Below the pieces are notes generated by a model. It did no database searches. It had not been told where the DNA came from and saw only the letters and a list, made by a program, of their open reading frames with translations. A stretch of DNA of 64,000 nucleotides from contig CAZLJE010000013.1 in assembly GCA_964559835.1 (NCBI GenBank), forward strand, positions 54,209-118,208. The letters are read 5' to 3'. This DNA comes from an uncultured Terriglobales bacterium. GTDB lineage: Bacteria > Acidobacteriota > Terriglobia > Terriglobales > Acidobacteriaceae. A program made the translations under genes and the position numbers. Below, piece by piece: positions 31,831 to 47,467 of this stretch (its first letter is position 1; every line of letters starts with the position of its first letter).

Positions 31831-34800
31831 ATGAAGATTCAAATTACTCTCACTCTTATCGTTCTTCTACTGGCAGGAACCATGTTTGCGCAATCGGACC
31901 GCGCCTCGATCACCGGTACGGTGAAGGACACGACAGGCGCCGTTGTGCCGGGAGTGTCAGTCACCGTCACGAACGTGGGAACCAATGAACAGACCAGCAC
32001 GACGACCAATGCCCTGGGCCTGTTTACCGTACTGAATCTCCCTATTGGCGAGTACAAGGTACTGGCCAGCAAAGATGGGTTTGGCACGTCTGAACGCAAA
32101 GGGATCAATCTCGCGATCAGCCAGGTCGCGGAGATCAACTTCCAGTTGCGGGTTGGCGCCACCGCTGAAACCGTCACGGTATCCGAAGACGCTCCACTGC
32201 TGGATACGCAGACATCATCAGTCTCGACCAACCTGCACAATGCCGCCGTTAATGAGCTTCCGTTGAATGTCCAGGGTGGCCGCAATCTCTCGAACTTCAT
32301 GTTTGCCTATGTCCCGGGGGTCGAGGGATCTGATTACGACTCTCACATCGGCGGCAGTATGAGCAAAACGAAAGAGGTCATGATCGATGGCACTTCTGCC
32401 GTGGCGCAGATCGGCGGCTATTTGAGCGAATCGAGCCCGCCCATGGAGGCGGTCGAAGAATTCCAGGTCAGCACCAGCGGGTTGCGTGCCGATGAAGGCC
32501 GCAGCGGTGGTGGCGTCTTCCGTTACAACATGAAGTCGGGCACCAATAGCTGGCATGGCAGCGGCGTTTATTTCATGCACGATGCTGCGTTCAACGCCAC
32601 GGCATGGGATAAGAAGTACAACAGCGTCCTGTGCGTGAAAAACGCCGGCTCCAACAGCGCCCAGGCAGCTGCGTGTGGACGCGTGTTCGGCAAACCCGAC
32701 GACAGTCTGTTCGATTACGGCGGGAGCGTCGGCGGAGCCATTGTGAAGAACAAGTTGTTCTTTACTGCCGCCTGGGAACGTTACACCTTCGCCAATTACG
32801 GACTCGGCGGGCTTAATTCTACCGTCCCGACAACCGCGTTCCTTAACGGCGACTTCAGTTCCTTGCTGGATAAAACCAAGATCCTGGGCGTGGACAGCGC
32901 CGGCAGGACCGTATACAAGGGAGCGATCATCGATCCCAACACGGGCAATGCGTTTCCAGGGAACATCATTCCTACGGCACGCATCAGCTCCGTCGCGCAG
33001 AAGATCGCGGCCCTTTATAAGCAGTACTATGCGCCACTCTCTTCCAACCTTACCAACAACAACGCTATGCCTCTGAACAACCCAGCGACGTGGTATCAGA
33101 GCAACCAGTACAGCGTCAAAATCGATTACCTCCTCTCTCAAAAGCATCACCTGAATGGGTCGTTCATCTACGCCTACATTACGCGCCTTCTTTCCGACCA
33201 GGGCGGAATCTGGTCGCCAGGTTCGAAGGATGGCGGACCGATGGCCAACGCGTACGACCACAACACTACGGCGCCGTCGGTGCGGTTGAGCGATTCATGG
33301 ACCATCTCTAACACCGTGCTCAATGTCTTCAACGTGACGTTCAACCGCTTCCACAACCCCAGTTCTGCCCGGTCTCAACAGGGGAACTGGTCTAAGACTC
33401 TGGGCCTGGGTGACTTTGGCGCGGGCAACTTCCCGATCATCAAGTTCCAGGGTGTGAACGGCGATCAGCACACGAAGGTAAACGGGAAGAATATCGACGA
33501 AAGTTCGCTGGGAAGCCAATTCAACGACTTCTATACCGCCAACACTTACGTTTTTAACGACAACCTTTCCTGGGTGAAGGGGCGGCATACCTACAAGTTC
33601 GGCGGCGATCTGCGCATCATGCAGTTCAACTCGCACGGCGATTACGGTGTTCCGACTATCACCTTCGATCCTGCGCAGACAGCGGGCTCTTACGGCAGCG
33701 GCAACGCGGGTTTCGGATTTGCCAGCTTCATGCTGGGCGCGGCGAACCAGGGGTCGGTAAGTGTCCCGAACAACACGTATGGACGGCGGAAGGCGCTGTC
33801 GCTCTATGCCCTGGACGACATCAAAGTCACTTCGAAGCTCACACTGAACCTCGACCTGCGGTGGGACTTCAACGGCCGCTACCACGAGAAGTTTGGTCAC
33901 TGGTCGAACTTCAATACGACCAAGATCAATCCGGCAACGGGTAAGGCTGGCGCGCTGGAGTTTGCGACCGGGGGCGGCGACTCGTTCGAGCGGAATCAGA
34001 ACTACCACAACTTCTCCGGGCATATAGGCGTGGCGTACCAAGTCACTCCGAAGACGGTGGCGCGCGCGTCGTTTGGCGTCTTTTATGTGCCGCTGAACCT
34101 GAACACGTGGGGCGCGATTCCTTACGGGTTCAATCCTGGATTCGTGGCCAACAACCAGGTGTTGACGTCCTTTAAGGTGGATAGCGGATATCCGGGGAAA
34201 CCGGTCGATGTGGGCAAAGACCCGAACTTCACAAGATGGGGCATGGTGTCGATCGATCCCCGCAGCCTGGAGCTCGGCAACGTTCAGCAGTGGTCGGTGG
34301 GCGTTGAGCGCGAGTTGAGCCGTGATCTGGTGCTGAACGTCGATTTCATGCAGAACCACGGGTACCATCTGGAAAGCGGATACCTGGCCGCGAACCAGCC
34401 GAAGTTGCCGGCGTACAGCGCCATGTCGGACGCCGGACAGATGTGGAACTGGATCTCGTCGCCAACATTCAACGGCTTTGGTTGGGCGGCGGTTGCGCCC
34501 TTCCCGAATGTTGCCATGACTTGGGGACCGCTGTTCTATGTGGGGTCACCCCTGGGCAATTCCGATTACCACTCGTTGCAGTTCACGGTGAAGAAGCGGG
34601 CGTCGCATGGCCTGTCTCTGTTGGCCAGCTACAATCTGTCGTCTTCGCACGGTGACACCGACAACGCCTTCCAGGAACTTTGGTGGGCCGGGCCGCTGCA
34701 GGATGTCTATAACTTGCAGCAGGAGCGCAACACCATCTCCCCGTTCGACCAGAAGCACATCGTGAAGGGATACATCGTGTACGACCTGCCATTCGGCAAG

Positions 34801-35331
34801 GGGCGCGCGTTCCTGGCGAATGGCGGTTCCGCTCTGAATGCCATGGTCGGCGGATGGAGTCTCAGCACGGGGTTCCACTACAACTCGGGTACGCCGATGC
34901 GCATTACGGCAAACACCTGGTACCCCGGTATCACCAACGTCTATTCGAACATTGCTCCGAATTGCAGCTTTAGTCAGACCAACACCAGTGCGGTCGGTGG
35001 AACGTATTTCAATACTGCCTGCTTCTCCAACCCCGCTTACGGCCATTTCGGCAATGCTCCCGGTTACCTCGCTGACCTGCGTTGGCGTGGGTTCGCGACG
35101 GAGGACATGGGCATAAACAAGGCCATCCAGTTTGGCGAGCGCTTCAACCTGAGTCTGAAATTCCAGATGTTCAACGTGTTCAATCGTCGCGGATTGGGCG
35201 GTCCGAACACCGGTATCGGTAATCCGGAATTTGGCAAGGTTGGAACTCCTGACGGCAACGGAAACTTCTACGCCGTTGGGGGCGCTCCCGGACCTCGGAT
35301 CGGACAATTCGGCTTAAGGTTCACGTTCTAG
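31831..35331 (+). CDS. TonB-dependent receptor with N-terminal CarboxypepD_reg-like domain
   Basis: Signal peptide. ASITGTVKDTTGAVVPGVSVTVTN..GLFTVLNLPIGEYKV, then plug, a long barrel and terminal RIGQFGLRFTF. RBS AGGAG. Confidence 0.9.
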   Translation: MKIQITLTLIVLLLAGTMFAQSDRASITGTVKDTTGAVVPGVSVTVTNVGTNEQTSTTTNALGLFTVLNLPIGEYKVLASKDGFGTSERKGINLAISQVAEINFQLRVGATAETVTVSEDAPLLDTQTSSVSTNLHNAAVNELPLNVQGGRNLSNFMFAYVPGVEGSDYDSHIGGSMSKTKEVMIDGTSAVAQIGGYLSESSPPMEAVEEFQVSTSGLRADEGRSGGGVFRYNMKSGTNSWHGSGVYFMHDAAFNATAWDKKYNSVLCVKNAGSNSAQAAACGRVFGKPDDSLFDYGGSVGGAIVKNKLFFTAAWERYTFANYGLGGLNSTVPTTAFLNGDFSSLLDKTKILGVDSAGRTVYKGAIIDPNTGNAFPGNIIPTARISSVAQKIAALYKQYYAPLSSNLTNNNAMPLNNPATWYQSNQYSVKIDYLLSQKHHLNGSFIYAYITRLLSDQGGIWSPGSKDGGPMANAYDHNTTAPSVRLSDSWTISNTVLNVFNVTFNRFHNPSSARSQQGNWSKTLGLGDFGAGNFPIIKFQGVNGDQHTKVNGKNIDESSLGSQFNDFYTANTYVFNDNLSWVKGRHTYKFGGDLRIMQFNSHGDYGVPTITFDPAQTAGSYGSGNAGFGFASFMLGAANQGSVSVPNNTYGRRKALSLYALDDIKVTSKLTLNLDLRWDFNGRYHEKFGHWSNFNTTKINPATGKAGALEFATGGGDSFERNQNYHNFSGHIGVAYQVTPKTVARASFGVFYVPLNLNTWGAIPYGFNPGFVANNQVLTSFKVDSGYPGKPVDVGKDPNFTRWGMVSIDPRSLELGNVQQWSVGVERELSRDLVLNVDFMQNHGYHLESGYLAANQPKLPAYSAMSDAGQMWNWISSPTFNGFGWAAVAPFPNVAMTWGPLFYVGSPLGNSDYHSLQFTVKKRASHGLSLLASYNLSSSHGDTDNAFQELWWAGPLQDVYNLQQERNTISPFDQKHIVKGYIVYDLPFGKGRAFLANGGSALNAMVGGWSLSTGFHYNSGTPMRITANTWYPGITNVYSNIAPNCSFSQTNTSAVGGTYFNTACFSNPAYGHFGNAPGYLADLRWRGFATEDMGINKAIQFGERFNLSLKFQMFNVFNRRGLGGPNTGIGNPEFGKVGTPDGNGNFYAVGGAPGPRIGQFGLRFTF

Positions 35332-35355: not shown

Positions 35356-35387
35356 CAGGGCAGCTCGCCAAGAGCTGCCCTGTTTTC
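35356..35387 (+). terminator. Rho-independent terminator
   Basis: CAGGGCAGCTC-GCCAA-GAGCTGCCCTG followed by TTTTC. Confidence 0.8.
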
Positions 35388-35413: not shown

Positions 35414-36103
35414 CTAGAACACCGCTTGCGAACTGGTGCCGACGGCTGCGAATACGTTGTTGCGTTCTTGTTCGGCGATGGGAATGAAGATGTTCACGAT
35501 CTCCGTGTCGAACTGCGTGCCGGAGCCGGCGAGGAGGCGGCGTACCGCCTCCTCATGAGGCAGTCCCTTGCGATAGCAACGGTTCGATGTCATCGCGTCG
35601 TAGGAATCGATGACGGAGACGATCCGCGACACCGTCGGGATCTCGGTTGCCTTCAGGCCGGCGGGATAACCCTTCCCGTCGAAAGCTTCGTGGTGGTGCA
35701 GAGCGTAAAGGCTGGCGGGTTGAAATCCCGGGAACAGGCGCAGGATCGACCAACTGTATTCCGGATGTTTGTTGATCACCGCGCGTTCATCCGGCGTCAG
35801 CGGCCCGTTCTTCTTCAGGATGGCGTCGGGTACACCGATCTTGCCGATATCATGGAGGAGGGCGGCGACTTCCACCTGGTACATGTGCTCCTCGCCGATG
35901 CCGAGCTTCCGCGCCACACGCAACGCCCATTCCGCCAGCCGCGTACTGTGCACGCCGGTGTTCATGTCCTTCAGGTCCAAAAGTTGGTTGAAGGCGCAGA
36001 TCAGCGAGGTCCGTAAGGTCGCCTGCTGCTCTTCCAGTTCCTTCACCTGGAATTGGGCCGGCGACCAGGACGCGGCCAGCGGATTGTTGAGCGATGCGAG
36101 CAT
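35414..36103 (-). CDS. Stand-alone HD-GYP domain protein (c-di-GMP phosphodiesterase family)
   Basis: LLHDIGKIGVPDAIL and HHEAFDGKGYPAGL motifs. Confidence 0.85.
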   Translation of the reverse strand: MLASLNNPLAASWSPAQFQVKELEEQQATLRTSLICAFNQLLDLKDMNTGVHSTRLAEWALRVARKLGIGEEHMYQVEVAALLHDIGKIGVPDAILKKNGPLTPDERAVINKHPEYSWSILRLFPGFQPASLYALHHHEAFDGKGYPAGLKATEIPTVSRIVSVIDSYDAMTSNRCYRKGLPHEEAVRRLLAGSGTQFDTEIVNIFIPIAEQERNNVFAAVGTSSQAVF

Positions 36104-36125
36104 GGAGTTATCTTTCTACTTCGCC

Positions 36126-37451
36126 TTATTGCCGGCAGTACTGAACTGCCTGGTAGGTGTCAACGCGAAGGTTGTTCAGGTTCGCGTTGCCGATCCAAAC
36201 AGCCTTGGACAGCCCGGTTGAGACTTCACTCGCCAAACAAGTGCCGTTCTGACCGAGCATGATGGCAGCAGTGCCCGCCACCAGCGGCGTGCTGAACGAC
36301 GTTCCCCAAGCCGCGGCGTAAGTGCCCCACGGATACGGCGCCATGATCGCTTCGCCCGGCGCAGCCAGTTTCACCGGCGGTGCTCCGTAATTCGTGAAGG
36401 ACGACTGCACGTCGTAGTTATTGGTAGACGCAACGTCAACGACGCCAGGGAGTGCGGCAGGATAGACCGCCACATTCTTGCCGTCGTTTCCCGCAGACGC
36501 GACGCAAATAACACCCTGTTTCTGGGCATAGCTGACTGCATTTGCCAGTTCGCCAGAGCTGCTGGTGAAGCTAAAACTCATGTTGAGTACGTCCGCGCCG
36601 TTCTTGACGGAGTAATAAATGGCGCGCAGAACGTCCGACTCATAACCCGTGCCGTCCGCGCCGAAGGCCTTGAGCGGCATGATCTGCGCCGTCGGGGCGA
36701 CGAGGTGCACCAGGCCCGCAGTCATCGTGCCGTGACCGAAGGCAGCATAGCTGCCACTCCCATCGAGCAAGGCGACGGTGGATTGATCCAAAAGGGCGAC
36801 CGTGGATTGGTTTACCTGTCCAGGCTGGGCGTTGCTCAGATTCGGCGAAGTGCTTACGTCGTTCTTTTCCGAACCGCCATTCGTATTCCGGGTGAAGTCA
36901 TAGCCGGAGGTAAGAACGCCTTGCAACGCGGGATGCGTCGGGTCCACACCGGTATCGATGACGGCAACGATGACGCCGGATCCGGCAGCGTTGAACGTGG
37001 AATGAGCCTGGTCGATGCGGATCTTCGAATAGGCGGGTTGCGCCAGGAAACCGTGCCACACCGTCGTGCCATAGTAGTTGACCGGCGTCTTGTCGGTGAG
37101 GTACGACGGCACCGGGCCAACAGTCGCGCCTGCCGTTCTGACTTTCTGGTCAATCTCAACATCGAGAATGCCGGTTTGCAGGCTGAGAGTAAGCGGGCTG
37201 AGCAGCGATCCCGTGGGAAGCGTGACCAGGAACAACTGTCCTTGGGGGTCGCCCAGGCTGTAATTGACCTTACAACCGAGCAGGAGACAGGTCAGGTTCA
37301 GACCGCTCAAGCCGAGTGAATCGCGCACGATCAACCGCGTCTGGGCCTGTGCGGCGGGCGCGAATAAGCTCGCCAGCAGGATCACCGCAACGGCCAGGAA
37401 GCTGCTGCGCCCCTTCGCCGAAGAAATCATATTTTCAGTAGTGTTTCTCAT
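36126..37451 (-). CDS. Secreted S8 (subtilisin-like) serine peptidase
   Basis: Signal peptide. Catalytic triad contexts VAVIDTGVD, FGHGTMTAG and WGTSFSTP. Confidence 0.9.
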   Translation of the reverse strand: MRNTTENMISSAKGRSSFLAVAVILLASLFAPAAQAQTRLIVRDSLGLSGLNLTCLLLGCKVNYSLGDPQGQLFLVTLPTGSLLSPLTLSLQTGILDVEIDQKVRTAGATVGPVPSYLTDKTPVNYYGTTVWHGFLAQPAYSKIRIDQAHSTFNAAGSGVIVAVIDTGVDPTHPALQGVLTSGYDFTRNTNGGSEKNDVSTSPNLSNAQPGQVNQSTVALLDQSTVALLDGSGSYAAFGHGTMTAGLVHLVAPTAQIMPLKAFGADGTGYESDVLRAIYYSVKNGADVLNMSFSFTSSSGELANAVSYAQKQGVICVASAGNDGKNVAVYPAALPGVVDVASTNNYDVQSSFTNYGAPPVKLAAPGEAIMAPYPWGTYAAAWGTSFSTPLVAGTAAIMLGQNGTCLASEVSTGLSKAVWIGNANLNNLRVDTYQAVQYCRQ

Positions 37452-37554
37452 TCCATCCTCTCCTGGAGCCGTTCCAGGTTTCCCACGTGTTGGGGAGTTT
37501 AGTGTCAGTTCTGGAACTGGCCAAATTACGTCGGTAACAAAAATGTTAGGGTCC

Positions 37555-38172
37555 TTATTTTGTTAAGAGTTTCGGGTCTCCCAGGGGTACCTGGACTCGT
37601 TTTGTCGATGTCAATTCCAGCGACAAGCGCAAGCGTTCGCGAATATCGCACTCAAACTGAAATTCACCAAAATCGGTGGTCATGGTTTCCAACACCGCGG
37701 CGCCGTTCTCGTTGAACAGGATCACCGGTACCGGCATCGGATAGTGGTTCTTGTTTTCGAGCACTTGCCCGACGACGATCAGGCGCTGCGGCGGTTGGAA
37801 TTCGAACCGCATGTCGATGGTGACCCCATTCGCCTCGTAGAGAAGCTGACGGGCATTGCTCGCGGCCGCGGCACGAATGCCGAGGGGCGCTGCTTGCGCG
37901 AAGCTGTCGAATACGAGGCTTGCGAGCAAGGTTTCTTTCTTTTCTGCCTTGGGATACTTGATCTCAAACTCCTGTTTCAACATGCGCACCAAATCTGCCG
38001 GCGGGTCGTACGTACGGTCCTGACTGGCTGAGGATCGCATCCACTGCCAGGTCGCGAATGCCTGTCGGCACTCGACGCAGCCCGTTTGCAGGTGCTTTTC
38101 CACTTCGGCCTTCGTGGCCTGGTCGACTGTTCCTCGAACCAGGTTCACCCAAACTTCGTCTTCGAAATGCAT
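37555..38172 (-). CDS. Soluble anti-sigma-like protein: N-terminal zf-HC2-like motif plus C-terminal CarboxypepD_reg-like beta-sandwich
   Basis: EKHLQTGCVECRQAF (HxxxxCxxC, one residue longer than the canonical HxxxCxxC). No TM segment. C-terminal VGQVLENKNHYPMPVPVILFNENGAAVLETMTTDFGEFQFE. RBS GAGGAA before ATG 38172. Confidence 0.45.
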   Translation of the reverse strand: MHFEDEVWVNLVRGTVDQATKAEVEKHLQTGCVECRQAFATWQWMRSSASQDRTYDPPADLVRMLKQEFEIKYPKAEKKETLLASLVFDSFAQAAPLGIRAAAASNARQLLYEANGVTIDMRFEFQPPQRLIVVGQVLENKNHYPMPVPVILFNENGAAVLETMTTDFGEFQFECDIRERLRLSLELTSTKRVQVPLGDPKLLTK

Positions 38173-38296
38173 GTTTTCCTCGCTTGGGGATAGCGGGGCG
38201 CTTTCCGCGCCGTTGAGTCGACGGCCAATTTCACCGTCATCTGGAGCAAAAGGGAGTCGAGGCGAGGGAAAAATATAGGCGGGAAGAAAAAAAGTT

Positions 38297-41158
38297 CTAA
38301 AGCCGTCCGACGAGCACAAATGGCGCCCAATGATAGGGATGCGGATATTCTGCCCGTAGTTCGGTCATTGCGTCCCGCAGGGCTTCCGCTTTCGGGGCGC
38401 CCGACTGGAGGCGGCGGTAGAAGGCGACCATGAATCCGGCAGTAGTGCGGTCATGAACATCCCACAAACTGAGGACGAGCGACTGGGCTCCAGCCTGCAG
38501 CAGCCCACGGACCATGCCCATCAATTCATCGCCCGCGGTAACCACATTCAAGCCGGTTGCACATCCGCTCAGGACCACAAGTTCGGCCGGGAGCCTCAAT
38601 TGATAAAGGTCGTACAGGCTGAGATAGGAATCCGCGAGGCGGATCGACGAGAACATCGGATTGTCCTGGCGGAATTGCCCGTGCGTTGCAATGTGCACGA
38701 TGCGGCTGTCCGGCCCATGCCGCCGAAGCGCGCTTTCGGTGGCATCGCTGCCCAGGCAGGTCACCGGGTTGGGCAGGATCGATTTCAGCGCTTCGACCTC
38801 CTCGCCGATCGACGGAGCCGCCGCATCAGGAATGCCCATCAATAGCGAAGTGTCCGAACTAGATGCGGGGAGCCGCTGGCAAAGCGTGAAGATGCTTGCG
38901 CTCGGGGCATAAGAAACCGTGAACCGGTCGATCAAGTGGCGCTCACCATCGAACAGCGCCTGGAACGGAACGTGATGCAGCACTCCATGAGGAACGAAGA
39001 TCAGGTGATCGGCCCGCAAGCGTGGTTCCAGGGGAGCGATCAATTCGGCGTAAAGTTGCTGGAGATGGGACTGCGTGGCCTGCATGATCGGTCCCTGAAA
39101 GGCTTCCAGGTAACCGCTATCGAGCCGGAACTTCGACATCTGGAATTGAACCAGGCGCAACAGCGACTCGATCCGCGACTGGAAGGTGACAGGGGCGATC
39201 TCGACTGAATCGTGGGTGACGACGCAAGCTACGAACCGGTCTTTGACCGCGAAGTATTCGACCAGAGCAGCCTCGGCGGGGAGCGACTGCCGAATCTCGT
39301 CCAAGGGCAGATGCGTTGGCAATTGAATGCCGGCCTGGCTTGCCTCGGAAAGGCTCGCTTCCTGCAGGACACGCAGCAGGTCCGTTTCGCGCGCGCGTAC
39401 CTGGCGTTCGAGGAGGTCGACGCGCTGCTGGGATTTTTCCTCCGGACGAAGTTGCTCGCGCTCGATCAGGTTGTAGTACCAGTTCAACTCCTCGCGCAGA
39501 TTGCGGATGTTCCGGACGAGTTCACTCTGGCCGGATCCGTCCTCCGCCTGGCGCTGGATAGGCTGCAGTAGCATGTCCATCAGGCTGCGCGACTTGGCCT
39601 GTTCGATGAGCCCGAACGCCTCCTCGGCCTTGCCTGGATTCTGGACTTCTCGCAGACACGCGATCACCAGGTTTTCGTACACTTCCAGCTTGTTCTTGAA
39701 AAACGAGATTTTCAGCTCTTCGCCGCGCAGGTTGCCTCGTAGCGTTTCCAGCGCCTGTTGCGCGGACAGATAACTTTTGTATGCGCTCGAAACGTCGCCC
39801 ATGGCGTCATACACCTGGCCGCTGACGAATTCTGCCTGGTAGATAAGCACCGGCAATTGCAGTTCTTGCGCGCCCGCCAGCGCGGAACGGCAGTGCTCCT
39901 GCGCCGCAGGCAGGTCGCCCATGCTCAGCGTTACTCGTGCCAGGAGAAGTTGCGCCAGCACGGCCTTGCTGCGGAACGACGACCGAAACGCCTCATAAGC
40001 GGCGTTGGCCAGGCGTCGAGCCTCGAACAACCGGCCTTCATTGAAAAGGACCAGTGCCTGGTAGAGGTCGATCAGTGAGGGCCAGACCAGGTTGTTCTCA
40101 CGCAGGAACACCTCGCGTGCCTTGCCGAACCGTTCGACAGCCTGGAACGGCTGTCCCATTTGGCTGAGCGCAATCGCAGAAAAAGCAAAAGCCTTCGCAC
40201 TCTCATAGGCCATTCCCAGTGCTTCAAACCCGGCATGGGCTGCGTCGGCGAGTTCAGTGGCCTCGGCGTGGAGATTCAACTCGAGATAGATCTCGGACAG
40301 GTCGAGGTTGCACAACGCGCCGTGGTACGCGTCGTTCAAATCTTTTGCCTTGATGCGCGCCGCCCGCAGCATCTCGATTGCACGGCCGTATTCGCCGCGC
40401 AGAAAATAGAGGTAGGCGATGTTGTAATCGGCCTGCACGACCAGGAGCGGCATCTGGTGCGTATCGCTGAAGGCACGCGCGTCTTCATAGTTGGCCAGCG
40501 CTTCAGTGAAGTGATTGAGGCTGATGTTGCAGACGGCGAGATTGCTCAGGGCGCCGGCAATACCTTCCGCGTCATCGTGCTTCAACAGTTCGACGTACGC
40601 GCGCTGGTAGGCTTCGAGCGCGTCCTGAAATCGGTCCTGGCGATAAAAAATGTTGCCAATGTTGAAGTCGACGCGCGCGATTCGCCAGAGATTGCCTTCT
40701 TCGCGAAAGATCTGCCGCGCGCGTTCGCCGGCGGCCAACGCTCGCTCGTAGCTGCCCAACAACAGCAGCGGCTGGATCGACGTGCTCAACGTACGCGCAA
40801 GCTCGTGCCGGTCTCCGGCCTGTTCGAATAGTTCAGCCGCGCGCAAGTGCAGGTCGGCAGCGGCACCGTTCTGGCCACTTGCAGACAGAGCGTTTGCCTT
40901 GGACCGCAACCCTTCTGCCAGAGCGGCCGGCGTATTCAGCGACTCGGCTATGGTCACGGCCGCTTCGGCGAAGCGTAACGCGTCCGCCGTACTCACTCGG
41001 ATCTGTCGCAAAACGCGGGTCGTCAACGAGGACAATATATCCGCGTCGCTCAGACAAGGATGTGATTGCACGAAGGCGCGCCGCTCTTCCGCCGAATCTA
41101 AGGCGCACAATCGCTCGACGAGTGCGTCGCGGTCGGCAATGGGGGCGGGGGCGCTCAT
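38297..41158 (-). CDS. TPR-repeat / CHAT-domain (caspase-like) protease
   Basis: About 600 aa of TPR-like repeats, then CHAT with HIATHGQF (His) and VVLSGCATG (Cys). Start ATG 41158 overlaps the sigma stop (ATGA). The ORF-track N-terminal extension is the Arg/Gly-rich out-of-frame shadow of the sigma gene. Confidence 0.88.
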   Translation of the reverse strand: MSAPAPIADRDALVERLCALDSAEERRAFVQSHPCLSDADILSSLTTRVLRQIRVSTADALRFAEAAVTIAESLNTPAALAEGLRSKANALSASGQNGAAADLHLRAAELFEQAGDRHELARTLSTSIQPLLLLGSYERALAAGERARQIFREEGNLWRIARVDFNIGNIFYRQDRFQDALEAYQRAYVELLKHDDAEGIAGALSNLAVCNISLNHFTEALANYEDARAFSDTHQMPLLVVQADYNIAYLYFLRGEYGRAIEMLRAARIKAKDLNDAYHGALCNLDLSEIYLELNLHAEATELADAAHAGFEALGMAYESAKAFAFSAIALSQMGQPFQAVERFGKAREVFLRENNLVWPSLIDLYQALVLFNEGRLFEARRLANAAYEAFRSSFRSKAVLAQLLLARVTLSMGDLPAAQEHCRSALAGAQELQLPVLIYQAEFVSGQVYDAMGDVSSAYKSYLSAQQALETLRGNLRGEELKISFFKNKLEVYENLVIACLREVQNPGKAEEAFGLIEQAKSRSLMDMLLQPIQRQAEDGSGQSELVRNIRNLREELNWYYNLIEREQLRPEEKSQQRVDLLERQVRARETDLLRVLQEASLSEASQAGIQLPTHLPLDEIRQSLPAEAALVEYFAVKDRFVACVVTHDSVEIAPVTFQSRIESLLRLVQFQMSKFRLDSGYLEAFQGPIMQATQSHLQQLYAELIAPLEPRLRADHLIFVPHGVLHHVPFQALFDGERHLIDRFTVSYAPSASIFTLCQRLPASSSDTSLLMGIPDAAAPSIGEEVEALKSILPNPVTCLGSDATESALRRHGPDSRIVHIATHGQFRQDNPMFSSIRLADSYLSLYDLYQLRLPAELVVLSGCATGLNVVTAGDELMGMVRGLLQAGAQSLVLSLWDVHDRTTAGFMVAFYRRLQSGAPKAEALRDAMTELRAEYPHPYHWAPFVLVGRL

Positions 41159-41736
41159 CGGTTCCTTATCTTTTCGAGTTGCTTGCGCAGTTTCTGCAGG
41201 CAACGTCCCCGAATAAATCCGATCGAACCACTGGCAAGATTCAACTTCTGCGCGACCTCGTCGTAACTGCGGGGCGGGTCTTCGTAAAAGAGCATTTGCA
41301 CCATGCGCCGGCAGCGCTCCGGGAGCTCTCGGACGGCATTGCGCACTGCCTCTTCCTCCTCCAGTTCCGCCAGCATGTCCTCCGGAACCGCCGGTTCGAC
41401 ACCGATCGGAAGCTCGTCGTCTTCGACGTCCACGTGCCGTTCCGCGCGCCGCTGGACAGCCAGACACTTGTGATAGCAAGTCTGGATCAGCCACTTCGGC
41501 AACGCCTTGGGCTCTCGCAGGCCCGCAAGTCCCGAAAGCAAGTCAAGGCACACCGACTGAAAAATATCGTTGGCGTCCTGGTGCAGGCCCAGCCGGACCG
41601 GAATGGAATAAATGAGCTTCTTATAGCGATCGATCAATACGGCCCAGGCTTCACTGTCGTGCTTCAGGCAGGCGGCAACCAACCGCTCATCCGACCATTC
41701 TGCGGACTGGGCTGGGGCGGGTGCGGGTGCGGTCAT
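41155..41736 (-). CDS. ECF-type sigma-70 family RNA polymerase sigma factor
   Basis: Region 2 (AWAVLIDRYKKLIYSIPVRL..DIFQSVCLDLL) and region 4 (LPERCRRMVQMLFYEDPPRSYDEVAQKLNLASGSIGFIRGRCLQKL). Start ATG 41736 shares 1 nt with the upstream TAA. Confidence 0.88.
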   Translation of the reverse strand: MTAPAPAPAQSAEWSDERLVAACLKHDSEAWAVLIDRYKKLIYSIPVRLGLHQDANDIFQSVCLDLLSGLAGLREPKALPKWLIQTCYHKCLAVQRRAERHVDVEDDELPIGVEPAVPEDMLAELEEEEAVRNAVRELPERCRRMVQMLFYEDPPRSYDEVAQKLNLASGSIGFIRGRCLQKLRKQLEKIRNR

Positions 41737-43493
41737 TAACGACCTCGCAGGGAAGCGTCGCGCCAGTACAGTTCCTCGGCATTCCACAGCGTGTAATGAT
41801 CGAGGACTGCGGGATGGAAATTGCCGAGCTGGGATTTTGCCGCCGATAGCACGTTCGGAGTTGCGATGAAAACGAAGGGCAAGTCCTCGGCGATCAGCTG
41901 CTGGGCACGGTCATAAATCTTCTTGCGGTCCTTATAGCTGGTGGTGACCATCTGCTGCTGCATCAATCGGTCGAGTTCCCGCTCCCAATCCGGAGCGCCC
42001 GTGGTCTCGCCGAGATGCCACAGGTGCATGGTCCCCGAATTTGTCCAGACATTCACCTCAGGGTTGGGGTCCGCGTCGCCTCCGCCGAAGCCCATGATCG
42101 CGGCGTCGTAATCGTACGTTTGCAGTAAGCGGTCGAGCATGGAACGGAAGTCCATGGGCACAACGTTGACCTTCATCCCGATCTGCTTGAGGTCTTCCTG
42201 GAGCAGCGTAGCCATTTTGGTGCGTTGCGTGTTCGAAGAACTGGTCAGGATCGAGAACTCGACCGGATTGCCACCACGGTCGAGCAGCGTACCGTCGCCG
42301 GACCAGCGGAATCCCGCGCCCCGCAGCAGCGTACGTGCTTCGTCCGGCGATCTCGCCGGGTGTGGCAGCGCACCGTTCAACCACATCTTGTTTCCCGGAC
42401 TGACATTCCCCCACAGGGGCGTTCCATATCCGCCGTAGACCAAGCGCACAATGCCGGCCCGGTCGATTGCGTCGGACACCGCTTTGCGGAATGCAAGCTC
42501 TCGAAACCAGGCCTGCTTGCGTGCGACCTGCTCCAGTTTCCGCCCGCTCACGTCGTTCTGGTTGAACACGAGGAAGTTGTATTCGAGACTCGGGCCAAGG
42601 TCGGAAAGCTGGTAGCTCTTGCTCTGCGCTGATTTTGACAGGAGCGCGTAGTTCTCCGCGCCGAGGCGGCTGATCATATCCGTTTCACCGGCTTGGAAGC
42701 GGATCAGTTGGGCGTCCTCGCTGCCGACGAACAGGAAGGTAATCTCGTCCAGGTAAGGCAACCTGTGTTTCTGCGAGTCCGCCTTCCAATAATACGGATT
42801 GCGCTCCAGCACCAGCCGCTGGCCCGCGACGTATTGCTTGACGCGGAACGGTCCCAGCCCGGCTACGTCCTGCGCCGCCAGTCCCCACATCTGGGCGAAC
42901 CGGCCATCGCGATAGGGCTTCTCCAGGATGTGCTTCGGCATGATCGCCAGGCTGTCGAATATCCGCTCCGCGGCGGCGTACGGCTGAGGAAGAGTGAACC
43001 GGACGGTGTACGCGTCCACTTTCGCGACCGTCATGGGTTTTCCGCCGATCACGAGCAGATCGCGCTGAGGCGAGTGGACCTGCTCGTCCAGGTACACCTG
43101 GTAAGAGAACACGACATCATCGGCATCGAACGGCCGGCCGTCGGAAAAACGAATGCCGCGCCGAAGCTGCAGCGTGAAGGTTCGGCCGTCGGGGGAAAGC
43201 TTCCAGCTCTTGGCGAGCGCGGGTTCGGTCTGTTGGGAGGCGCGGTTGATATGGACCAGGTCCGCCATGACCCTGCCGATCACTTCGCGAGACGCAGCGT
43301 CGGCGGACAGCACGGGATTCAGGGTCTTCGGTTCGGCACGCTGTCCCACCGTCAGGCGGCCGCCGTACGCTCCCTGCACGGAGCTGACCAGCACTTCTTC
43401 CCCGCGTTGCACCGGTTCCGCAGAGGGCCCAGTTGCCCACGCTTGCGACAAGACACACAGAACCAAAGAGCCGACAACGAGAAAGCGTCTCAA
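41736..43493 (-). CDS. ABC transporter substrate-binding protein, family 5 (peptide/nickel type)
   Basis: Signal peptide; DppA/OppA-like length and layout (LTVGQRAEPKTLNP.., NPYYWK). Confidence 0.85.
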   Translation of the reverse strand: MRRFLVVGSLVLCVLSQAWATGPSAEPVQRGEEVLVSSVQGAYGGRLTVGQRAEPKTLNPVLSADAASREVIGRVMADLVHINRASQQTEPALAKSWKLSPDGRTFTLQLRRGIRFSDGRPFDADDVVFSYQVYLDEQVHSPQRDLLVIGGKPMTVAKVDAYTVRFTLPQPYAAAERIFDSLAIMPKHILEKPYRDGRFAQMWGLAAQDVAGLGPFRVKQYVAGQRLVLERNPYYWKADSQKHRLPYLDEITFLFVGSEDAQLIRFQAGETDMISRLGAENYALLSKSAQSKSYQLSDLGPSLEYNFLVFNQNDVSGRKLEQVARKQAWFRELAFRKAVSDAIDRAGIVRLVYGGYGTPLWGNVSPGNKMWLNGALPHPARSPDEARTLLRGAGFRWSGDGTLLDRGGNPVEFSILTSSSNTQRTKMATLLQEDLKQIGMKVNVVPMDFRSMLDRLLQTYDYDAAIMGFGGGDADPNPEVNVWTNSGTMHLWHLGETTGAPDWERELDRLMQQQMVTTSYKDRKKIYDRAQQLIAEDLPFVFIATPNVLSAAKSQLGNFHPAVLDHYTLWNAEELYWRDASLRGR

Positions 43494-43527
43494 CAGAATC
43501 TCCCCACAAGCGATTTTCAGGTCAGGG

Positions 43528-44538
43528 TTAGCGGGATTGTAACCGCGTTTGCAGCGCGTCGGCGAGAAAACAATAGGTGATCGAAATCGTGATCAGCGCC
43601 ACGGCGGGGCCGAGCATCCACCAATACGACGTGAGCACTTGATATTGCTGTAGCGCCGCGAGCATGTTGCCCCAGCTCGGAGTGGGTTCATTCACGCCGA
43701 GAGCGAAAAAAGATAGACTCACCTCGGCGGCAACGTATTGTGGGACCAGCAGCGCCGCCTGCGTGAGCAGGACCGCGAATACAGACGGCAGAACATGCCG
43801 GCGAACCAGGTAGAACTCCGACGCGCCGAACCCTCGCGCGGCGGCAACGTAGTTCTGCGTCTTCGCGCTCAGCACGACGCCGCGCACCAGCCGAGCCGGC
43901 CGTGCCCATCCCAGCAGCGAAACCACACATACGATCAGCAGAAACGACTGGGCCGCGCCCAGATGTAACGGCAGCGCGGCGCGTAATGCCAACAGCAGGT
44001 AAAGCCAGGGCAACGTGAGCAGCAACTCAGAAGAGCCCATCAGGACCTCGTCCGCCCACCCGCCTCGATAACCCGCGATCAAGCCGATCAACAGCCCGAC
44101 TGCGAGCGAGATGCCCGTCGCCAGCAATCCCGCGCCGAGGGAAATTTGGCCGCCGTAAAGCAGTCTTGAGAATACATCGCGGCCGTAGCCATCCGTTCCG
44201 AGCAAAGAAATGCGTACAGCAGTATCGGTACAAAACAGGCGCCGCCGCGACCGGAAAACTCCCATGAAGGAATAATCCGCTCCCTTACAGAAGAATCGCA
44301 CCGGGGCGATCGTGCCTGGGTCTTCTTCATACACGCCGAAATCGACGGATCGAAGGTCGCGGACAAACGGACGGAGGTGATAACCGGACGCATCGCGGAA
44401 ATGCACCCGGGTGGGTGGCGCATAAGCGTGCATGCGATCCTGCTCGCCGGGATCGTAGGGAGCAAGGAACCCGGCGCCCATAACGGCCACATGCGCCGCC
44501 AGCAGGAAAGCACCGGCGATCCACAGAGTCCTACGCAT
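43528..44538 (-). CDS. ABC transporter permease (DppC/OppC-like)
   Basis: Six-TM permease; GTDGYGRDVFSRLLYG N-terminal motif. Confidence 0.85.
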   Translation of the reverse strand: MRRTLWIAGAFLLAAHVAVMGAGFLAPYDPGEQDRMHAYAPPTRVHFRDASGYHLRPFVRDLRSVDFGVYEEDPGTIAPVRFFCKGADYSFMGVFRSRRRLFCTDTAVRISLLGTDGYGRDVFSRLLYGGQISLGAGLLATGISLAVGLLIGLIAGYRGGWADEVLMGSSELLLTLPWLYLLLALRAALPLHLGAAQSFLLIVCVVSLLGWARPARLVRGVVLSAKTQNYVAAARGFGASEFYLVRRHVLPSVFAVLLTQAALLVPQYVAAEVSLSFFALGVNEPTPSWGNMLAALQQYQVLTSYWWMLGPAVALITISITYCFLADALQTRLQSR

Positions 44539-45505
44539 GCGCGCTCCTCGTAGTGATGCGCGGGTCGAACGCGAGCAGAAGCAAGTCAGCGAGCAGAGTT
44601 CCCATGGTCACCATCACGGCGGACAACATCACGGCCCCGATGACCACGTAAGGATCGCGCGCCAGCGTCGCCTCCAGAACGAGTGGGCCGAGGCCAGGCC
44701 AACCGGTAATGACTTCGACCGTCAGAGAACCGCTTAACAGCACCGAAAGAGAAAGCCCGAATAAAGAAATCGCCGGATTGGCCGCTGCCGGCAGCACGTG
44801 CCGTAGCAGCAAACGTGCTGTGTGGATCCCATTGCCGCGGACCGCCTGGATGTAAGGGCTTTCCAGCACCTCCGCCATGCTCGACCGCACATGTCTTACT
44901 ACGATCGCCACGATCCCGAGGGCGAGTACGCTCGCCGGGATCACGAGGTGTGCGGCGATGTCGCGCACCTGACCCCACCACGTAAGCCCCTCGAACGAGG
45001 AAGAAGTCAGTCCGCCGACCGGCAGCATCCGAGTGCGGACGGCGAAGGCCAGGACCGCCAGCACTACGGCAATCTCAGGCACGGACAGCATGAACGAACT
45101 CGCGACGGTGACTACACGGTCGATCCAGCCTCCGCGACGCAGCGCGGTCCACGCCCCCAGCGGGACGGCCAGCAACCACGCGAGCAATGTTGCGGAAAGG
45201 GTCAGCAGCAGCGTATTGCGGGCGCGCGCCAGCAGCAGTGGGCGCACCGGCGCGTTGTATGCGAACGAGTATCCAACATCTCCACGCGCCGCCGAACTCA
45301 ACCAGAGCCAATATCTCGCGGGCAGAGGCCGGTCCATCCCATACTGCGCACGAAGGCCGGCGATCGTCTGCGGCGACACCTGCGGATTCAAGCGCAGTTC
45401 GTCGAAATAAGAACCGGGCACGATATCGCTCAGGACGAAGCAAAAAACTGATGTCGCCAGGAGCACCAGGATGGCCCGGGCAAAGCGTCGAAACGCGTAA
45501 CTCAT
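44531..45505 (-). CDS. ABC transporter permease (DppB/OppB-like)
   Basis: Six-TM permease with an EAA-like loop; 8-nt overlap with the downstream permease. Confidence 0.85.
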   Translation of the reverse strand: MSYAFRRFARAILVLLATSVFCFVLSDIVPGSYFDELRLNPQVSPQTIAGLRAQYGMDRPLPARYWLWLSSAARGDVGYSFAYNAPVRPLLLARARNTLLLTLSATLLAWLLAVPLGAWTALRRGGWIDRVVTVASSFMLSVPEIAVVLAVLAFAVRTRMLPVGGLTSSSFEGLTWWGQVRDIAAHLVIPASVLALGIVAIVVRHVRSSMAEVLESPYIQAVRGNGIHTARLLLRHVLPAAANPAISLFGLSLSVLLSGSLTVEVITGWPGLGPLVLEATLARDPYVVIGAVMLSAVMVTMGTLLADLLLLAFDPRITTRSAHA

Positions 45506-46344
45506 ACGCCCTCCCCGGCAGCACGTGCGAACAGGCGGTTACCCGCTTCGGCCGCATCCAGCAGCACCCGGGTGGCATGCGCTTGCGGAGCATCGAACAC
45601 GCGGCGGATGGGGCCGCTCTCTACCACGCTTCCGCCGGAAACCACCGCGATCTCGTCGGCGAATTGCGCGGTGAGGGCGATGTCGTGAGAAATGACGATG
45701 TACGTAAGATCGAGTGCGGCGCGAAGATCAAGTAACAGATTGGCGATCTGCGCGGCTGTCGAGAGATCGAGTCCGGTGAACGCTTCGTCGAGGATCAGCA
45801 GGCGTGGCTCGATCGCCAGTGCGCGCGCGATCGCAATCCGCTGCAACTGTCCGCCGCTAAACTGTGAGGGCCGCCGGCGTCTCCAGTCCGGCGAGAGACC
45901 AACCTGGCGCATCAGCCGGACCACTATTTCAGCGCGCGAGTCGCGCGTGCCGCGATTCTGTACGACGAGAGGTTCGGCGATCAGCTCTTCTGCCGTAAGC
46001 CGTGGATTGAGCGCCGTCGATGGGTCTTGAAATATGAGCTGTATCCTGGGGCGCACTCGCCGGAGGTCGCTACCGGAGAGCCGCGTCAAATCGACGTCAT
46101 CCAAGAAGATGGATCCGGAATCGACCTTCTCCATGCCGGCGATGCAGCGAGCGAGCGTGGTTTTGCCGCCTCCGGAATCGCCGACAACCGCCAGGATCGA
46201 GCCGCGGCGAACCGCAAGGGCAACATCGTGCAGGGCGACAACCTCACGAGTGCGCCAGCCCTCGCGTCTCGAATAACGCTTTTCCAGCGATTGAACGCGG
46301 AGCAGAACTGGATTGCTCTGCCAGCTTTCCCCGATGCTATTCAT
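45502..46344 (-). CDS. ABC transporter ATP-binding protein (DppF/OppF-like)
   Basis: GDSGGGKTT Walker A, FSGGQLQRIAIARAL signature, LILDEAFTGLD Walker B. Start trimmed to MNSIGES. Confidence 0.85.
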   Translation of the reverse strand: MNSIGESWQSNPVLLRVQSLEKRYSRREGWRTREVVALHDVALAVRRGSILAVVGDSGGGKTTLARCIAGMEKVDSGSIFLDDVDLTRLSGSDLRRVRPRIQLIFQDPSTALNPRLTAEELIAEPLVVQNRGTRDSRAEIVVRLMRQVGLSPDWRRRRPSQFSGGQLQRIAIARALAIEPRLLILDEAFTGLDLSTAAQIANLLLDLRAALDLTYIVISHDIALTAQFADEIAVVSGGSVVESGPIRRVFDAPQAHATRVLLDAAEAGNRLFARAAGEGV

Positions 46345-47317
46345 AGATGAGGCAGCGGACGTCGTGCCCGGCATACTGGCTAACGATGGGGTGACGCGCG
46401 GCGCATGCAGCCATGCGTTTTGCACAGCGGCGCTCGAAATAGCAGCAATCTTCGAACTGCGCAACGCTGGCCTCGCCTTCAATGACGGTAAAACGTCTCG
46501 AGTTCTTTCCGCTGTGGATCGCGCTGCGCTCGCGCGCGAGCTGGACTAGCGCCTGGGTGTAAGGGTGGAGCGGTTCGCGCAGCACGGATGCAGTCGGCCC
46601 TGTTTCCACGATCTCGCCGGCGTACATGACAATCAGCCGCTGAGTCACAGCGGCAACGGCACCCGGTTCATGCGAGATAAAGAGAAGAGCCATACCGTAC
46701 TGCGCGCGCAAAGCGCCGAACAATTCCAGCAATTCCGATTTCAGCCGCACGTCCAGCTTCGAGGTGGCCTCGTCGGCGATCAGCAACGCCGGACGACACG
46801 CAATTGCCTGCGCGATCGCGGCGCGCTGTCTCTCGCCGCCGCTGAGCTGGTGAGCGTAACGGCGGCTGATCGTTTCGGGATTGGAGAACCCGACACTTCG
46901 CAAGGTCTCGATCGCGCGGAGGCTTCGTTCCGCACCCGGTAATCGAACGTGACTGCGAAGTACTTCGGCAACCTGCACACCGATCGTGAGGACTGGATTC
47001 AGAGATTGGGCAGGGTCTTGGGAAATGAGAGCAATCTGCCCTCCGCGGATCGAGCAAAGCTCGTCTTCGGTTGCGGAGGTCAGTTCCTTGTCTTGAAAGC
47101 GGATCCTACCTTCCGCATGCGCGCCGGGAGGAAGCAGGCCAAGGATCGTCCGGGCGAGAGTCGATTTTCCGCAGCCCGATTCGCCGAGAAGCCCAACCGC
47201 CTCTCCAGGGTAGATTGTGAACGAAGTTGTGGAAACCGCCTGGACTGCAACCGGCGCTCCTCCATAACGGACGGACACCTCGCAAAGTTGCAGCAATGCC
47301 TGCCCTGGATTCCCCAC
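46337..47317 (-). CDS. ABC transporter ATP-binding protein (DppD/OppD-like) with Cys-rich C-terminal extension
   Basis: GESGCGKST, LSGGERQRAAIAQAI and LIADEATSKLD. C-terminal FEDCCYFERRCAKRMAACAARHP. Confidence 0.85.
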   Translation of the reverse strand: MGNPGQALLQLCEVSVRYGGAPVAVQAVSTTSFTIYPGEAVGLLGESGCGKSTLARTILGLLPPGAHAEGRIRFQDKELTSATEDELCSIRGGQIALISQDPAQSLNPVLTIGVQVAEVLRSHVRLPGAERSLRAIETLRSVGFSNPETISRRYAHQLSGGERQRAAIAQAIACRPALLIADEATSKLDVRLKSELLELFGALRAQYGMALLFISHEPGAVAAVTQRLIVMYAGEIVETGPTASVLREPLHPYTQALVQLARERSAIHSGKNSRRFTVIEGEASVAQFEDCCYFERRCAKRMAACAARHPIVSQYAGHDVRCLIYE

Positions 47318-47467
47318 ACCTGTCCCCGATAGCGCAGACCATATAACAGCCCCCGCTCATCATTCAAGCGGTATCTGCTGTTGACCCATACTTGCTCCGC
47401 GCGGCGTTGCATTCGAATTAACGGGCGGGTAGGCTTCGGATTGCGCAAGCTCGTCCTGCGCTGTCAC

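Follow-up and report, generated by a model that had tools for sequence, protein, structure and literature searches.

A conserved ten-gene block in Terriglobia

Our analysis of a 64-kb stretch of contig CAZLJE010000013.1 from an uncultured Terriglobales bacterium (the whole stretch is called the window) centered on a block of genes encoding a sigma factor of the extracytoplasmic function (ECF) type, a TPR-CHAT protease, a small protein of 205 amino acids (aa), a secreted S8 protease, and a stand-alone HD-GYP protein, which is probably a protease-gated gene switch unrelated to CRISPR. In the list of open reading frames (ORFs) of the window, all genes of the block lie on the minus strand (Table 1). 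A preliminary description of this DNA had reported these five genes as linked and co-directional, and the ORF list of the window bears this out at the positions it gave; in the public annotation of the contig, the product lengths are identical (193, 953, 205, and 441 aa). The five genes are thus real, but the description missed five ATP-binding cassette (ABC) importer genes that precede the sigma gene in the same direction (41736-47317), and the block comprises ten genes. These form one conserved unit in the order ATPase-ATPase-permease-permease-binding protein-sigma-CHAT-small-S8-HD-GYP. The stop codon of the binding-protein gene overlaps the sigma ATG (TAATG, 41738-41734), the ATGA junction reported earlier between the sigma and CHAT genes was read from the sequence at 41158-41155, and translational coupling is predicted to run from the binding protein through the sigma factor to the CHAT protein. 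Further downstream, the genes are separated by 124 nucleotides (nt; CHAT to small gene), 103 nt (small gene to S8), and 22 nt (S8 to HD-GYP).

Table 1. Positions of the genes and candidate regulatory features of the block in the window
Feature	Position	Strand	Evidence
ABC transporter ATPase 1 (OppD/DppD-like, oligopeptide C-terminal region); first in the block	46337..47317	-	NCBIfam dipeptide/oligopeptide ATPase models 2e-70, all under curated cut-offs
ABC transporter ATPase 2 (OppF/DppF/NikE-like)	45502..46482	-	listed start TTG
ABC permease (OppB/NikB-like)	44531..45505	-	
ABC permease (OppC/NikC-like)	43528..44538	-	
Periplasmic binding protein SBP_bac_5 (peptide/nickel/opine class), signal peptide	41736..43493	-	SBP_bac_5 1.6e-83
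ECF-type sigma factor, 193 aa (sigma2 + sigma4)	41155..41736	-	TIGR02937
TPR-CHAT caspase-like protease, 953 aa, predicted cytoplasmic	38297..41158	-	CHAT 3.3e-67, TPR_12 2e-19
Promoter-like element	38248..38293	-	conserved motif
Soluble small protein, 205 aa: H/H/C/C zinc-type N-domain, linker, beta-sandwich	37555..38172	-	
Secreted subtilisin/thermitase-like S8 protease, 441 aa	36126..37451	-	Peptidase_S8 7.5e-35
Stand-alone HD-GYP phosphodiesterase domain protein, 229 aa	35414..36103	-	HD_5 7.6e-39
GC-rich hairpin, 11 bp	35356..35382	.	11 pairs, 8 GC
Weak sigma-70-like promoter candidate, TTGAAT-16-TATATG	47338..47365	-	read from sequence

Relatives of the CHAT protein were collected from one genome per species scanned, yielding 316, and the locus counts given here refer to the best 80 of these 316, which are full-length, share 53-84% identity, and are all titled Terriglobia or Acidobacteriota. 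Gene order was determined by ORF calling and phmmer, with some contigs too short to show the whole block. Where contigs reached far enough, the ten-gene order was kept in essentially all loci, and the CHAT and S8 genes were found at every locus whose contig covers them. The synteny of the sigma, CHAT, and small-protein genes, which the preliminary description had taken as decisive for its proposal, held in 80/80 related species loci, and metagenome contigs picked via the small protein displayed the same gene order down to 33% small-protein identity. Importer orthologues were present directly upstream of the sigma gene in approximately 74 of the 77 assessable loci (~96%); the other three (L039, L065, and L082) have no ABC importer before the sigma gene and an intact sigma-CHAT-small-S8-HD-GYP series. 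At L082, the sequence upstream of the sigma gene resembles a transposase remnant (IS200/IS605 OrfB-like), suggesting rearrangement. The overlap between the binding-protein and sigma genes was -4 nt in 66/77 loci, and the spacing between the sigma and CHAT genes was -4, -1, or 0 nt in 65/77. Since no conserved flanking gene family was found around the block at the species loci, the ten genes can be regarded as a discrete unit.

A promoter-like motif upstream of the small gene

A bipartite motif with the consensus TATATTT-N16-CCCTTAT was identified upstream of the small gene. In the window, the element consists of a T-run (38293-38287), box B (CCTATATTTTT, 38279-38269), a spacer of exactly 16 nt, and box C (CCCTTTT, 38254-38248), and is separated from the ATG of the small gene by 75 nt, the corresponding distance being 57-122 nt in most loci. 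A position-weight scan revealed the motif in all 80 CHAT/small-gene intergenic regions with just three other matches in 1.8 Mb, and the spacer was 16 nt long in all 76 cases matched by a regular expression. The motif stays directly upstream of the small gene where an insertion follows the CHAT gene (L012 and L080). Because it also precedes the paralogues of the small gene, full-length as well as truncated, the motif is probably the target promoter of the sigma factor. Interpretation of the T-run as a mere terminator of the CHAT gene was rejected, as no hairpin was found there in the window and the element keeps its place before the small gene despite the insert in L012.

Upstream of the first ABC gene, many orthologous loci carry TTGCGA-17-TAAGAT/TAATAT at the position of the window's TTGAAT-16-TATATG, and the box B/C motif is absent there at every orthologous locus; an ordinary promoter of the sigma-70 type appears to drive the ABC-sigma-CHAT unit. 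We read the block as two transcription units, a sensing unit (importer-sigma-CHAT) and a unit with a putative dedicated promoter (small gene-S8-HD-GYP). The suggestion in the preliminary description that the S8 protease and the HD-GYP protein are outputs of the switch gains support from the promoter-like motif before this second unit.

Alternatively, the element may be a sigma-70-type promoter, with box B as its -10 region, followed by a downstream operator (box C) for another regulator or for the zinc domain of the small protein. A consensus scan picked out TTTAGA-18-TATATT here as the sole sigma-70-like site in 12.4 kb, and boxes B and C lack the AAC-type -35 and CGT-type -10 that are common in ECF promoters. 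However, the -35 region in such a promoter would sit in the stop-codon region of the CHAT gene, which is not kept as a TTGACA-like sequence, and the conserved T-run would fall within the spacer, whereas the exact 16-nt spacing of two conserved blocks fits ECF geometry and the motif is restricted to this gene family. We consider this alternative rather unlikely.

The small protein as a candidate anti-sigma factor

The small protein showed no match to Pfam and NCBIfam models at E<=0.01 and none to PADLOC models. In agreement with the HxxxxCxxC motif and the lack of a transmembrane segment described earlier, the N-terminal zinc-type motif (H2...H27-x4-C32-x2-C35) is invariant in 78/78 orthologues at 28-58% identity, and no hydrophobic segment was detected (no 19-residue window above Kyte-Doolittle 1.6); the protein is predicted to be soluble with an invariant H/H/C/C site. 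Also invariant in the 78 orthologues are F88, G98, and R100, in or beside a conserved linker (LVFDS...G98-x-R100), and GQ and GEF in the C-terminal sandwich. The AlphaFold2 model built with 18 homologues (predicted local distance difference test [pLDDT], 78.6) starts with four helices and ends in a beta-sandwich, and the disordered, low-pLDDT linker between them (residues 92-104) contains the invariant G98 and R100. The four helices were also predicted in a single-sequence model of the N-domain. The beta-sandwich proposed in the preliminary description is thus present in the model, but its resemblance to CarboxypepD_reg is weak (1 of 18 members, E 0.019), and a fold search with the whole model returned mostly weak Ig/MG-like beta-sandwich matches (E at least 3e-3).

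The anti-sigma identity previously suggested for this protein was not established. The zf-HC2 model scored 12.2 bits on the small protein of the window against a Pfam gathering threshold of 22.2 and remained sub-threshold in the family, matching 9/18 members with a best E of 0.0074. Profile searches of the PDB with the whole protein and with its N-domain gave chance-level matches and no anti-sigma factor, and a Foldseek search of the PDB with the isolated N-domain (single-sequence model; pLDDT, 76) gave nothing at E<1. In an hhalign comparison with ChrR, all four ligands were in register (ChrR H6/H31/C35/C38) with one inserted residue, although the alignment was weak (P=0.0044; probability, 7.8%). 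Because a calibration with ChrR and RslA, both bona fide zinc-binding anti-sigma factors (ZAS), reached only E=0.29, these negative homology results carry little weight. Soluble ZAS (ChrR, RsrA, and RshA; ECF11/12/14) likewise have an N-terminal helical H/C...H-x(n)-C-x2-C domain followed by a beta-rich C-domain (cupin in ChrR), whereas the small protein has one extra motif residue, and its gene, set apart from the sigma gene by an intervening protease gene, has a promoter-like element to itself. ECF270, an acidobacterial example, is listed with soluble ZAS partners in PMC8999054.

An exhaustive hidden Markov model search placed the small protein in a family of 3420 clusters at 50% identity, 283 of them at E<=1e-30, which supersedes the tiny family of 23 clusters from a word-indexed search. 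The ten family clusters looked up were unnamed or titled "hypothetical protein," and no relatives of the small protein were found on plasmids. A word-indexed homologue search with the N-domain profile retrieved only frameshifted same-cluster fragments from long-read assemblies, and several "short" homologues in the protein database are frameshifted artefacts of long-read assembly rather than truncated genes. Some genomes contain a second sigma gene (42% identical) followed by a full-length small-protein paralogue (33% identical) with no CHAT gene, and this paralogue keeps the H/H/C/C site and LVFDS...G-x-R. Full-length paralogues always follow a paralogous sigma gene, whereas N-terminally truncated ones have no adjacent sigma gene, indicating that the N-domain travels with the sigma gene. 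Stand-alone sigma/small pairs were observed near the main block at L096/L097 (234-1613, minus strand), L098 (5245-6618), L100, and L101, and the paralogous pairs carry a motif variant, TGTATTT-N16-C(A/T)CTT..., between the two genes. The truncated paralogues at L102-L112 (e.g., L104, 5849-6459) are 167 aa long, retain an LVFDS...G-I-R linker and the sandwich without the H/H/C/C site, and are divergent from the ABC operon with a strong box B/C copy approximately 100 nt upstream; they might be decoy substrates or modulators.

The small protein could instead be an ordinary soluble anti-sigma factor like RsrA or ChrR that senses redox state or zinc and releases the sigma factor by itself upon thiol or metal stress, with the CHAT protease employed elsewhere, for instance in the processing of imported peptides or of other substrates in the cytoplasm, or as a scaffold. 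Consistent with this are the register with ChrR of the invariant H/H/C/C residues, the paralogous sigma/small pairs without an adjoining CHAT gene, and the fact that ECF11, ECF12, and ECF14 are known to have soluble ZAS that work through a conformational change (PMC8999054). However, the CHAT gene separates the sigma gene, whose stop codon it overlaps, from the small gene and was never lost in 80/80 loci, which is hard to explain if its product is unrelated, and the segment that holds the conserved linker residues is predicted to be disordered. A self-releasing anti-sigma factor is, in our view, fairly improbable here.

The TPR-CHAT protease and the sigma factor

The CHAT domain (PF12770; 227 bits, cut-off 24) of the large protein lies behind its TPR repeats. 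The His/Cys dyad reported in the preliminary description was checked for loss among the orthologues, and both residues, H826 (ATHG) and C866 (LSGCATG), are invariant down to 47% identity. Neither a signal peptide nor a transmembrane segment was found in the TPR-CHAT protein, which is predicted to be catalytically intact and without an export signal. TPR-CHAT relatives on plasmids of cyanobacteria, Burkholderiaceae, Azospirillum, and Streptomyces have no sigma neighbour, which marks them as generic CHAT genes without this context, and no relatives of the CHAT protein were found on viral contigs.

The sigma factor scored 78 bits against TIGR02937 (ECF; cut-off 42.9) and matched Sigma70_r2 (E 1.7e-4) and Sigma70_r4 (E 3.2e-6) of Pfam within its 193 aa, which assigns it by sequence to the ECF (group 4) branch of the sigma-70 family, with sigma2 and sigma4 regions only. 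All of the top 120 homologues listed in a profile search were from Terriglobales. The start is kept as MT(G/A) in orthologues, and the N-terminal extension is variable. Five cysteines (C23, C63, C91, C142, and C179) are invariant or nearly so in the sigma orthologues and the paralogue; such conservation, unusual for an ECF sigma factor, may mean that the sigma factor itself is sensitive to redox state or metals.

The importer and the secreted and HD-GYP products

All five importer proteins fall in the Opp/Dpp/Nik/opine class by NCBIfam, and the best NCBIfam match of the binding protein was Opp4A (3e-42, under the cut-off). Since the scores lie under every equivalog cut-off, the substrate can be assigned to the peptide class and no finer. 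The longest ORF of ATPase 2 overlaps that of ATPase 1 by 146 nt, and its orthologues are called at 249-289 aa, so that translation probably begins inside this ORF, downstream of the listed TTG, at a codon near 46340.

The signal-peptide S8 protease and the stand-alone HD-GYP protein of the preliminary description were both supported by domain matches. The S8 protease (Peptidase_S8, 121 bits) has conserved DTGVD, HGT, and GTSFSTP motifs and a hydrophobic signal segment at its N-terminus, and its nearest solved structures are those of AK.1 protease and thermitase. The HD-GYP protein matched HD_5 (133.6 bits), and its translation contains HDIGK and HHHEAFDGKGYP. Between the catalytic Asp and His, the S8 protease has an insertion (window 36760-36810, residues ~214-230), absent from thermitase and AK.1 protease, with a perfectly tandem octapeptide (QSTVALLD-QSTVALLD). 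In 68/78 orthologues (L011-L090), Q(R/S)TVAVLD occurs twice, and the repeat is far better conserved than the surrounding variable loop. The octapeptide could be structural, a processing site, or, speculatively, the source of a signalling peptide.

A tentative model of the switch

We tentatively propose that the block is a protease-gated ECF sigma switch composed of separate cytoplasmic parts and physically coupled to a peptide-class ABC importer, an explanation that we regard as quite possible, if short of probable in this complete form. The anatomy of the block, its conservation, and the motif are the observations from which we infer every step from sequestration onward. The N-terminal zinc domain of the small protein would keep the sigma factor inactive, and the TPR array of the CHAT protein would sense a cytoplasmic cue, most simply a peptide or another ligand delivered by the co-expressed importer, whose coupling to the sigma gene changes the likely input. 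Once activated, the CHAT protease would cleave the small protein, probably at the conserved disordered linker around G98/R100, and the freed sigma factor would read the TATATTT-N16-CCCTTAT promoter. The sigma factor would thereby raise the small protein itself, as negative feedback by the candidate anti-sigma factor; the secreted S8 protease, increasing extracellular proteolysis and possibly closing a positive loop via peptide import; and the HD-GYP enzyme, lowering cyclic di-GMP (c-di-GMP).

Several observations weigh against this model. Three of the 77 loci lack the importer, and its substrate class is, on the sequence matches, not distinguishable from nickel or opine. The small protein was not identified as an anti-sigma factor by any homology test, and its spacing is H-x4-C-x2-C rather than the canonical H-x3-C-x2-C. 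Its gene is not co-transcribed with the sigma gene in the usual way for an anti-sigma candidate, and box B by itself can also be taken for the -10 hexamer (TATATT) of a sigma-70 promoter. In addition, the linker motif is retained in the paralogous sigma/small pairs, which have no CHAT gene beside them, and the linker may therefore serve another purpose.

CHAT-triggered release of an ECF sigma factor has so far been documented only in CRISPR or defence contexts (Craspase and DdvA), and, if our model is true, the same principle would operate here as a chromosomal, lineage-wide housekeeping signalling device. Terriglobia are among the most abundant soil bacterial classes, and signal transduction there is almost unstudied. 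The set of parts is compact and testable: a sigma factor, a protease whose dyad is defined, a candidate substrate of 205 aa containing a candidate loop for cleavage, and a sharp promoter motif. By linking extracellular proteolysis, peptide-class import, and c-di-GMP turnover, the block bears on how Acidobacteria sense and use organic nitrogen, and it may account for the unexplained ECF54-type gene context in ECF classifications.

Relation to known systems

Release of ECF sigma factors by proteases has a precedent in Craspase-Csx30-RpoE (PMC10028731), and both CalpL-CalpT-CalpS and Craspase are described as precedents in bioRxiv 10.1101/2023.06.23.546230. The layout, for which the preliminary description knew of no characterised CHAT-gated ECF pathway, is anticipated in part by DdvA/DdvS of Myxococcus xanthus, a characterised ECF pair in which the anti-sigma factor bears a TPR-CHAT domain (PMC11506125), and by the neighbours of ECF54 (PMC8999054). 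DdvA/DdvS is the closest characterised relative in logic, in that a single regulatory unit contains an ECF sigma factor, a zinc-type helical sigma-binding candidate, and a TPR-CHAT protease bearing a His/Cys dyad, and CHAT-mediated sigma release is the proposed trigger. DdvA, however, is one transmembrane protein consisting of a cytoplasmic ZAS, a transmembrane helix, and a periplasmic TPR-CHAT part, for which self-cleavage followed by RseP proteolysis is proposed, whereas in the block the zinc domain and the TPR-CHAT part reside in separate, predicted soluble cytoplasmic proteins without a transmembrane segment or signal peptide. The zinc motif is CHCC in DdvA and HHCC in the small protein, and the output is a CBASS/CRISPR island in the former and, in the block, a protease and an HD-GYP protein, with an ABC importer in addition.

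Type III-E Craspase offers an analogy in logic: an ECF sigma factor, a soluble substrate that sequesters it, and a cytoplasmic protease of the TPR-CHAT kind are encoded together. The block has no gRAMP, cas gene, or array, and target RNA cannot be its activator. No CRISPR array or tandem repeat was found in the 64-kb window, in line with the preliminary description, and no cas or defence families turned up among its other 45 long ORFs, which encode carbohydrate enzymes, sigma-54 activators, and similar products. The CHAT protein scored 42.7 bits against the Csx29 model NF041237 (cut-off 300), a match limited to the CHAT domain, and the matches to the TPR-CHAT chains of Craspase in the PDB (E 1.6e-5 to 3e-4) were confined to the same domain. 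By these scores, the CHAT protein is not a Csx29 orthologue, and homology of the module to Craspase ends at the CHAT fold; the CRISPR-free Craspase analogue proposed earlier holds for the logic but is an analogy only, the small protein being likewise without an NCBIfam or PADLOC match.

The explanation nearest to Craspase would be a CRISPR-independent anti-phage or abortive-infection module in which the TPR array recognises a phage protein, the CHAT protease fires, and the sigma factor, S8 protease, and HD-GYP protein respond. CHAT proteases act in type III-E and type III-B defence, DdvA/DdvS controls a defence island, and weak PADLOC matches linked the CHAT protein to BovA (7.5e-7) and the S8 protease to subtilase/IetS models. 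The block, however, is near-universal, single, and vertically conserved in the 80 Terriglobia species loci rather than a patchy island, and its coupled partners are an importer of the nutrient type and a secreted protease; no defence or cas genes lie nearby, and relatives on viral contigs (CHAT protein) or plasmids (small protein) are lacking. A defence role therefore seems extremely unlikely to us.

In Actinobacteria, genes for carboxypeptidase, subtilase, and CHAT proteins are conserved next to ECF54 sigma genes, for which proteolytic control has been proposed (Huang et al. 2015, as cited in PMC8999054 and PMC7826278). Because this context already contains the same set of CHAT, subtilase, and carboxypeptidase(-regulatory-like) domains beside an ECF sigma factor, the idea is not new, although the ECF54 case is itself uncharacterised. 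ECF54 belongs to Actinobacteria, in contrast to the Acidobacteriota/Terriglobia setting of the block (80/80 loci), is described as having no anti-sigma factor, and is not mentioned with an ABC importer or HD-GYP protein in these two accounts.

By analogy with the proposal for ECF54, the CHAT protease may act on the sigma factor itself, with the small protein as a target or accessory rather than an inhibitor. The ECF54 context with its proposed proteolytic control (PMC8999054), the sigma/CHAT translational coupling, the variable N-terminal extension and five conserved cysteines of the sigma factor, and the unproven anti-sigma homology of the small protein are all compatible with this idea. It is nevertheless opposed by the co-occurrence of the H/H/C/C domain with a neighbouring sigma gene across the paralogues, and no conserved candidate cleavage site was identified in the sigma factor; the S8 protease, being exported, cannot meet a cytoplasmic sigma factor. 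We regard direct cleavage of the sigma factor as very unlikely.

In combining a candidate Opp-class importer with a secreted protease of the subtilisin type and a predicted cytoplasmic TPR protein, the block resembles the RRNPP systems of Firmicutes (PMC10569065). A more specific version of our model would accordingly be a peptide-sensing pathway in which the secreted subtilase generates peptides, either from environmental protein or as a self-encoded signal (possibly its own tandem octapeptide loop), Opp-type import delivers them to the TPR array, the CHAT protease cuts the zinc anti-sigma factor, the ECF regulon is turned on, and c-di-GMP falls. Unlike in RRNPP systems, the output would be a CHAT protease acting via a sigma/anti-sigma pair rather than an HTH or phosphatase domain, and the host has an outer membrane. 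The TPR likeness is generic (AimR model, 3.6e-5, far under the cut-off), and no conserved small ORF of the RRNPP propeptide type was found within 450-500 nt of either block end in ~78 loci. We consider this pathway distinctly unlikely. If true, it would be the first ligand-gated, CRISPR-independent TPR-CHAT/ECF switch, would realise RRNPP logic with different hardware, and would be the first such import-dependent peptide or quorum sensing in a diderm phylum.

Borders and variants of the locus

A 1166-aa outer-membrane beta-barrel protein gene (31831-35331, plus strand) converges on the HD-GYP gene; its product has an N-terminal CarboxypepD_reg domain and is TonB-dependent-receptor-like, and this neighbour is not kept at other loci. 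The hairpin between these two convergent genes (Table 1) is likely a bidirectional terminator that ends the block. Rfam returned nothing within the block and only a tRNA in the 64 kb.

Insertions between the CHAT and small genes were observed at L012 (12883-15259), L022 (4242-5409), and L080. Three proteins are encoded in the 2.4-kb insert of L012: one that is secreted and 283 aa long, one with a heavy-metal-associated (HMA)-like domain, and a small membrane protein. At L091 and L092, the block is broken by frameshifts in long-read assemblies, leaving fragmented calls for the CHAT, S8, and permease genes. In one lineage (L096/L097, 2774-4097), genes for a receiver (response-regulator) protein and a PilZ (c-di-GMP-binding) protein lie directly upstream of the ABC operon, and a receiver gene also lies upstream of the block at L001; these neighbours are a possible further tie of the block to c-di-GMP signalling.

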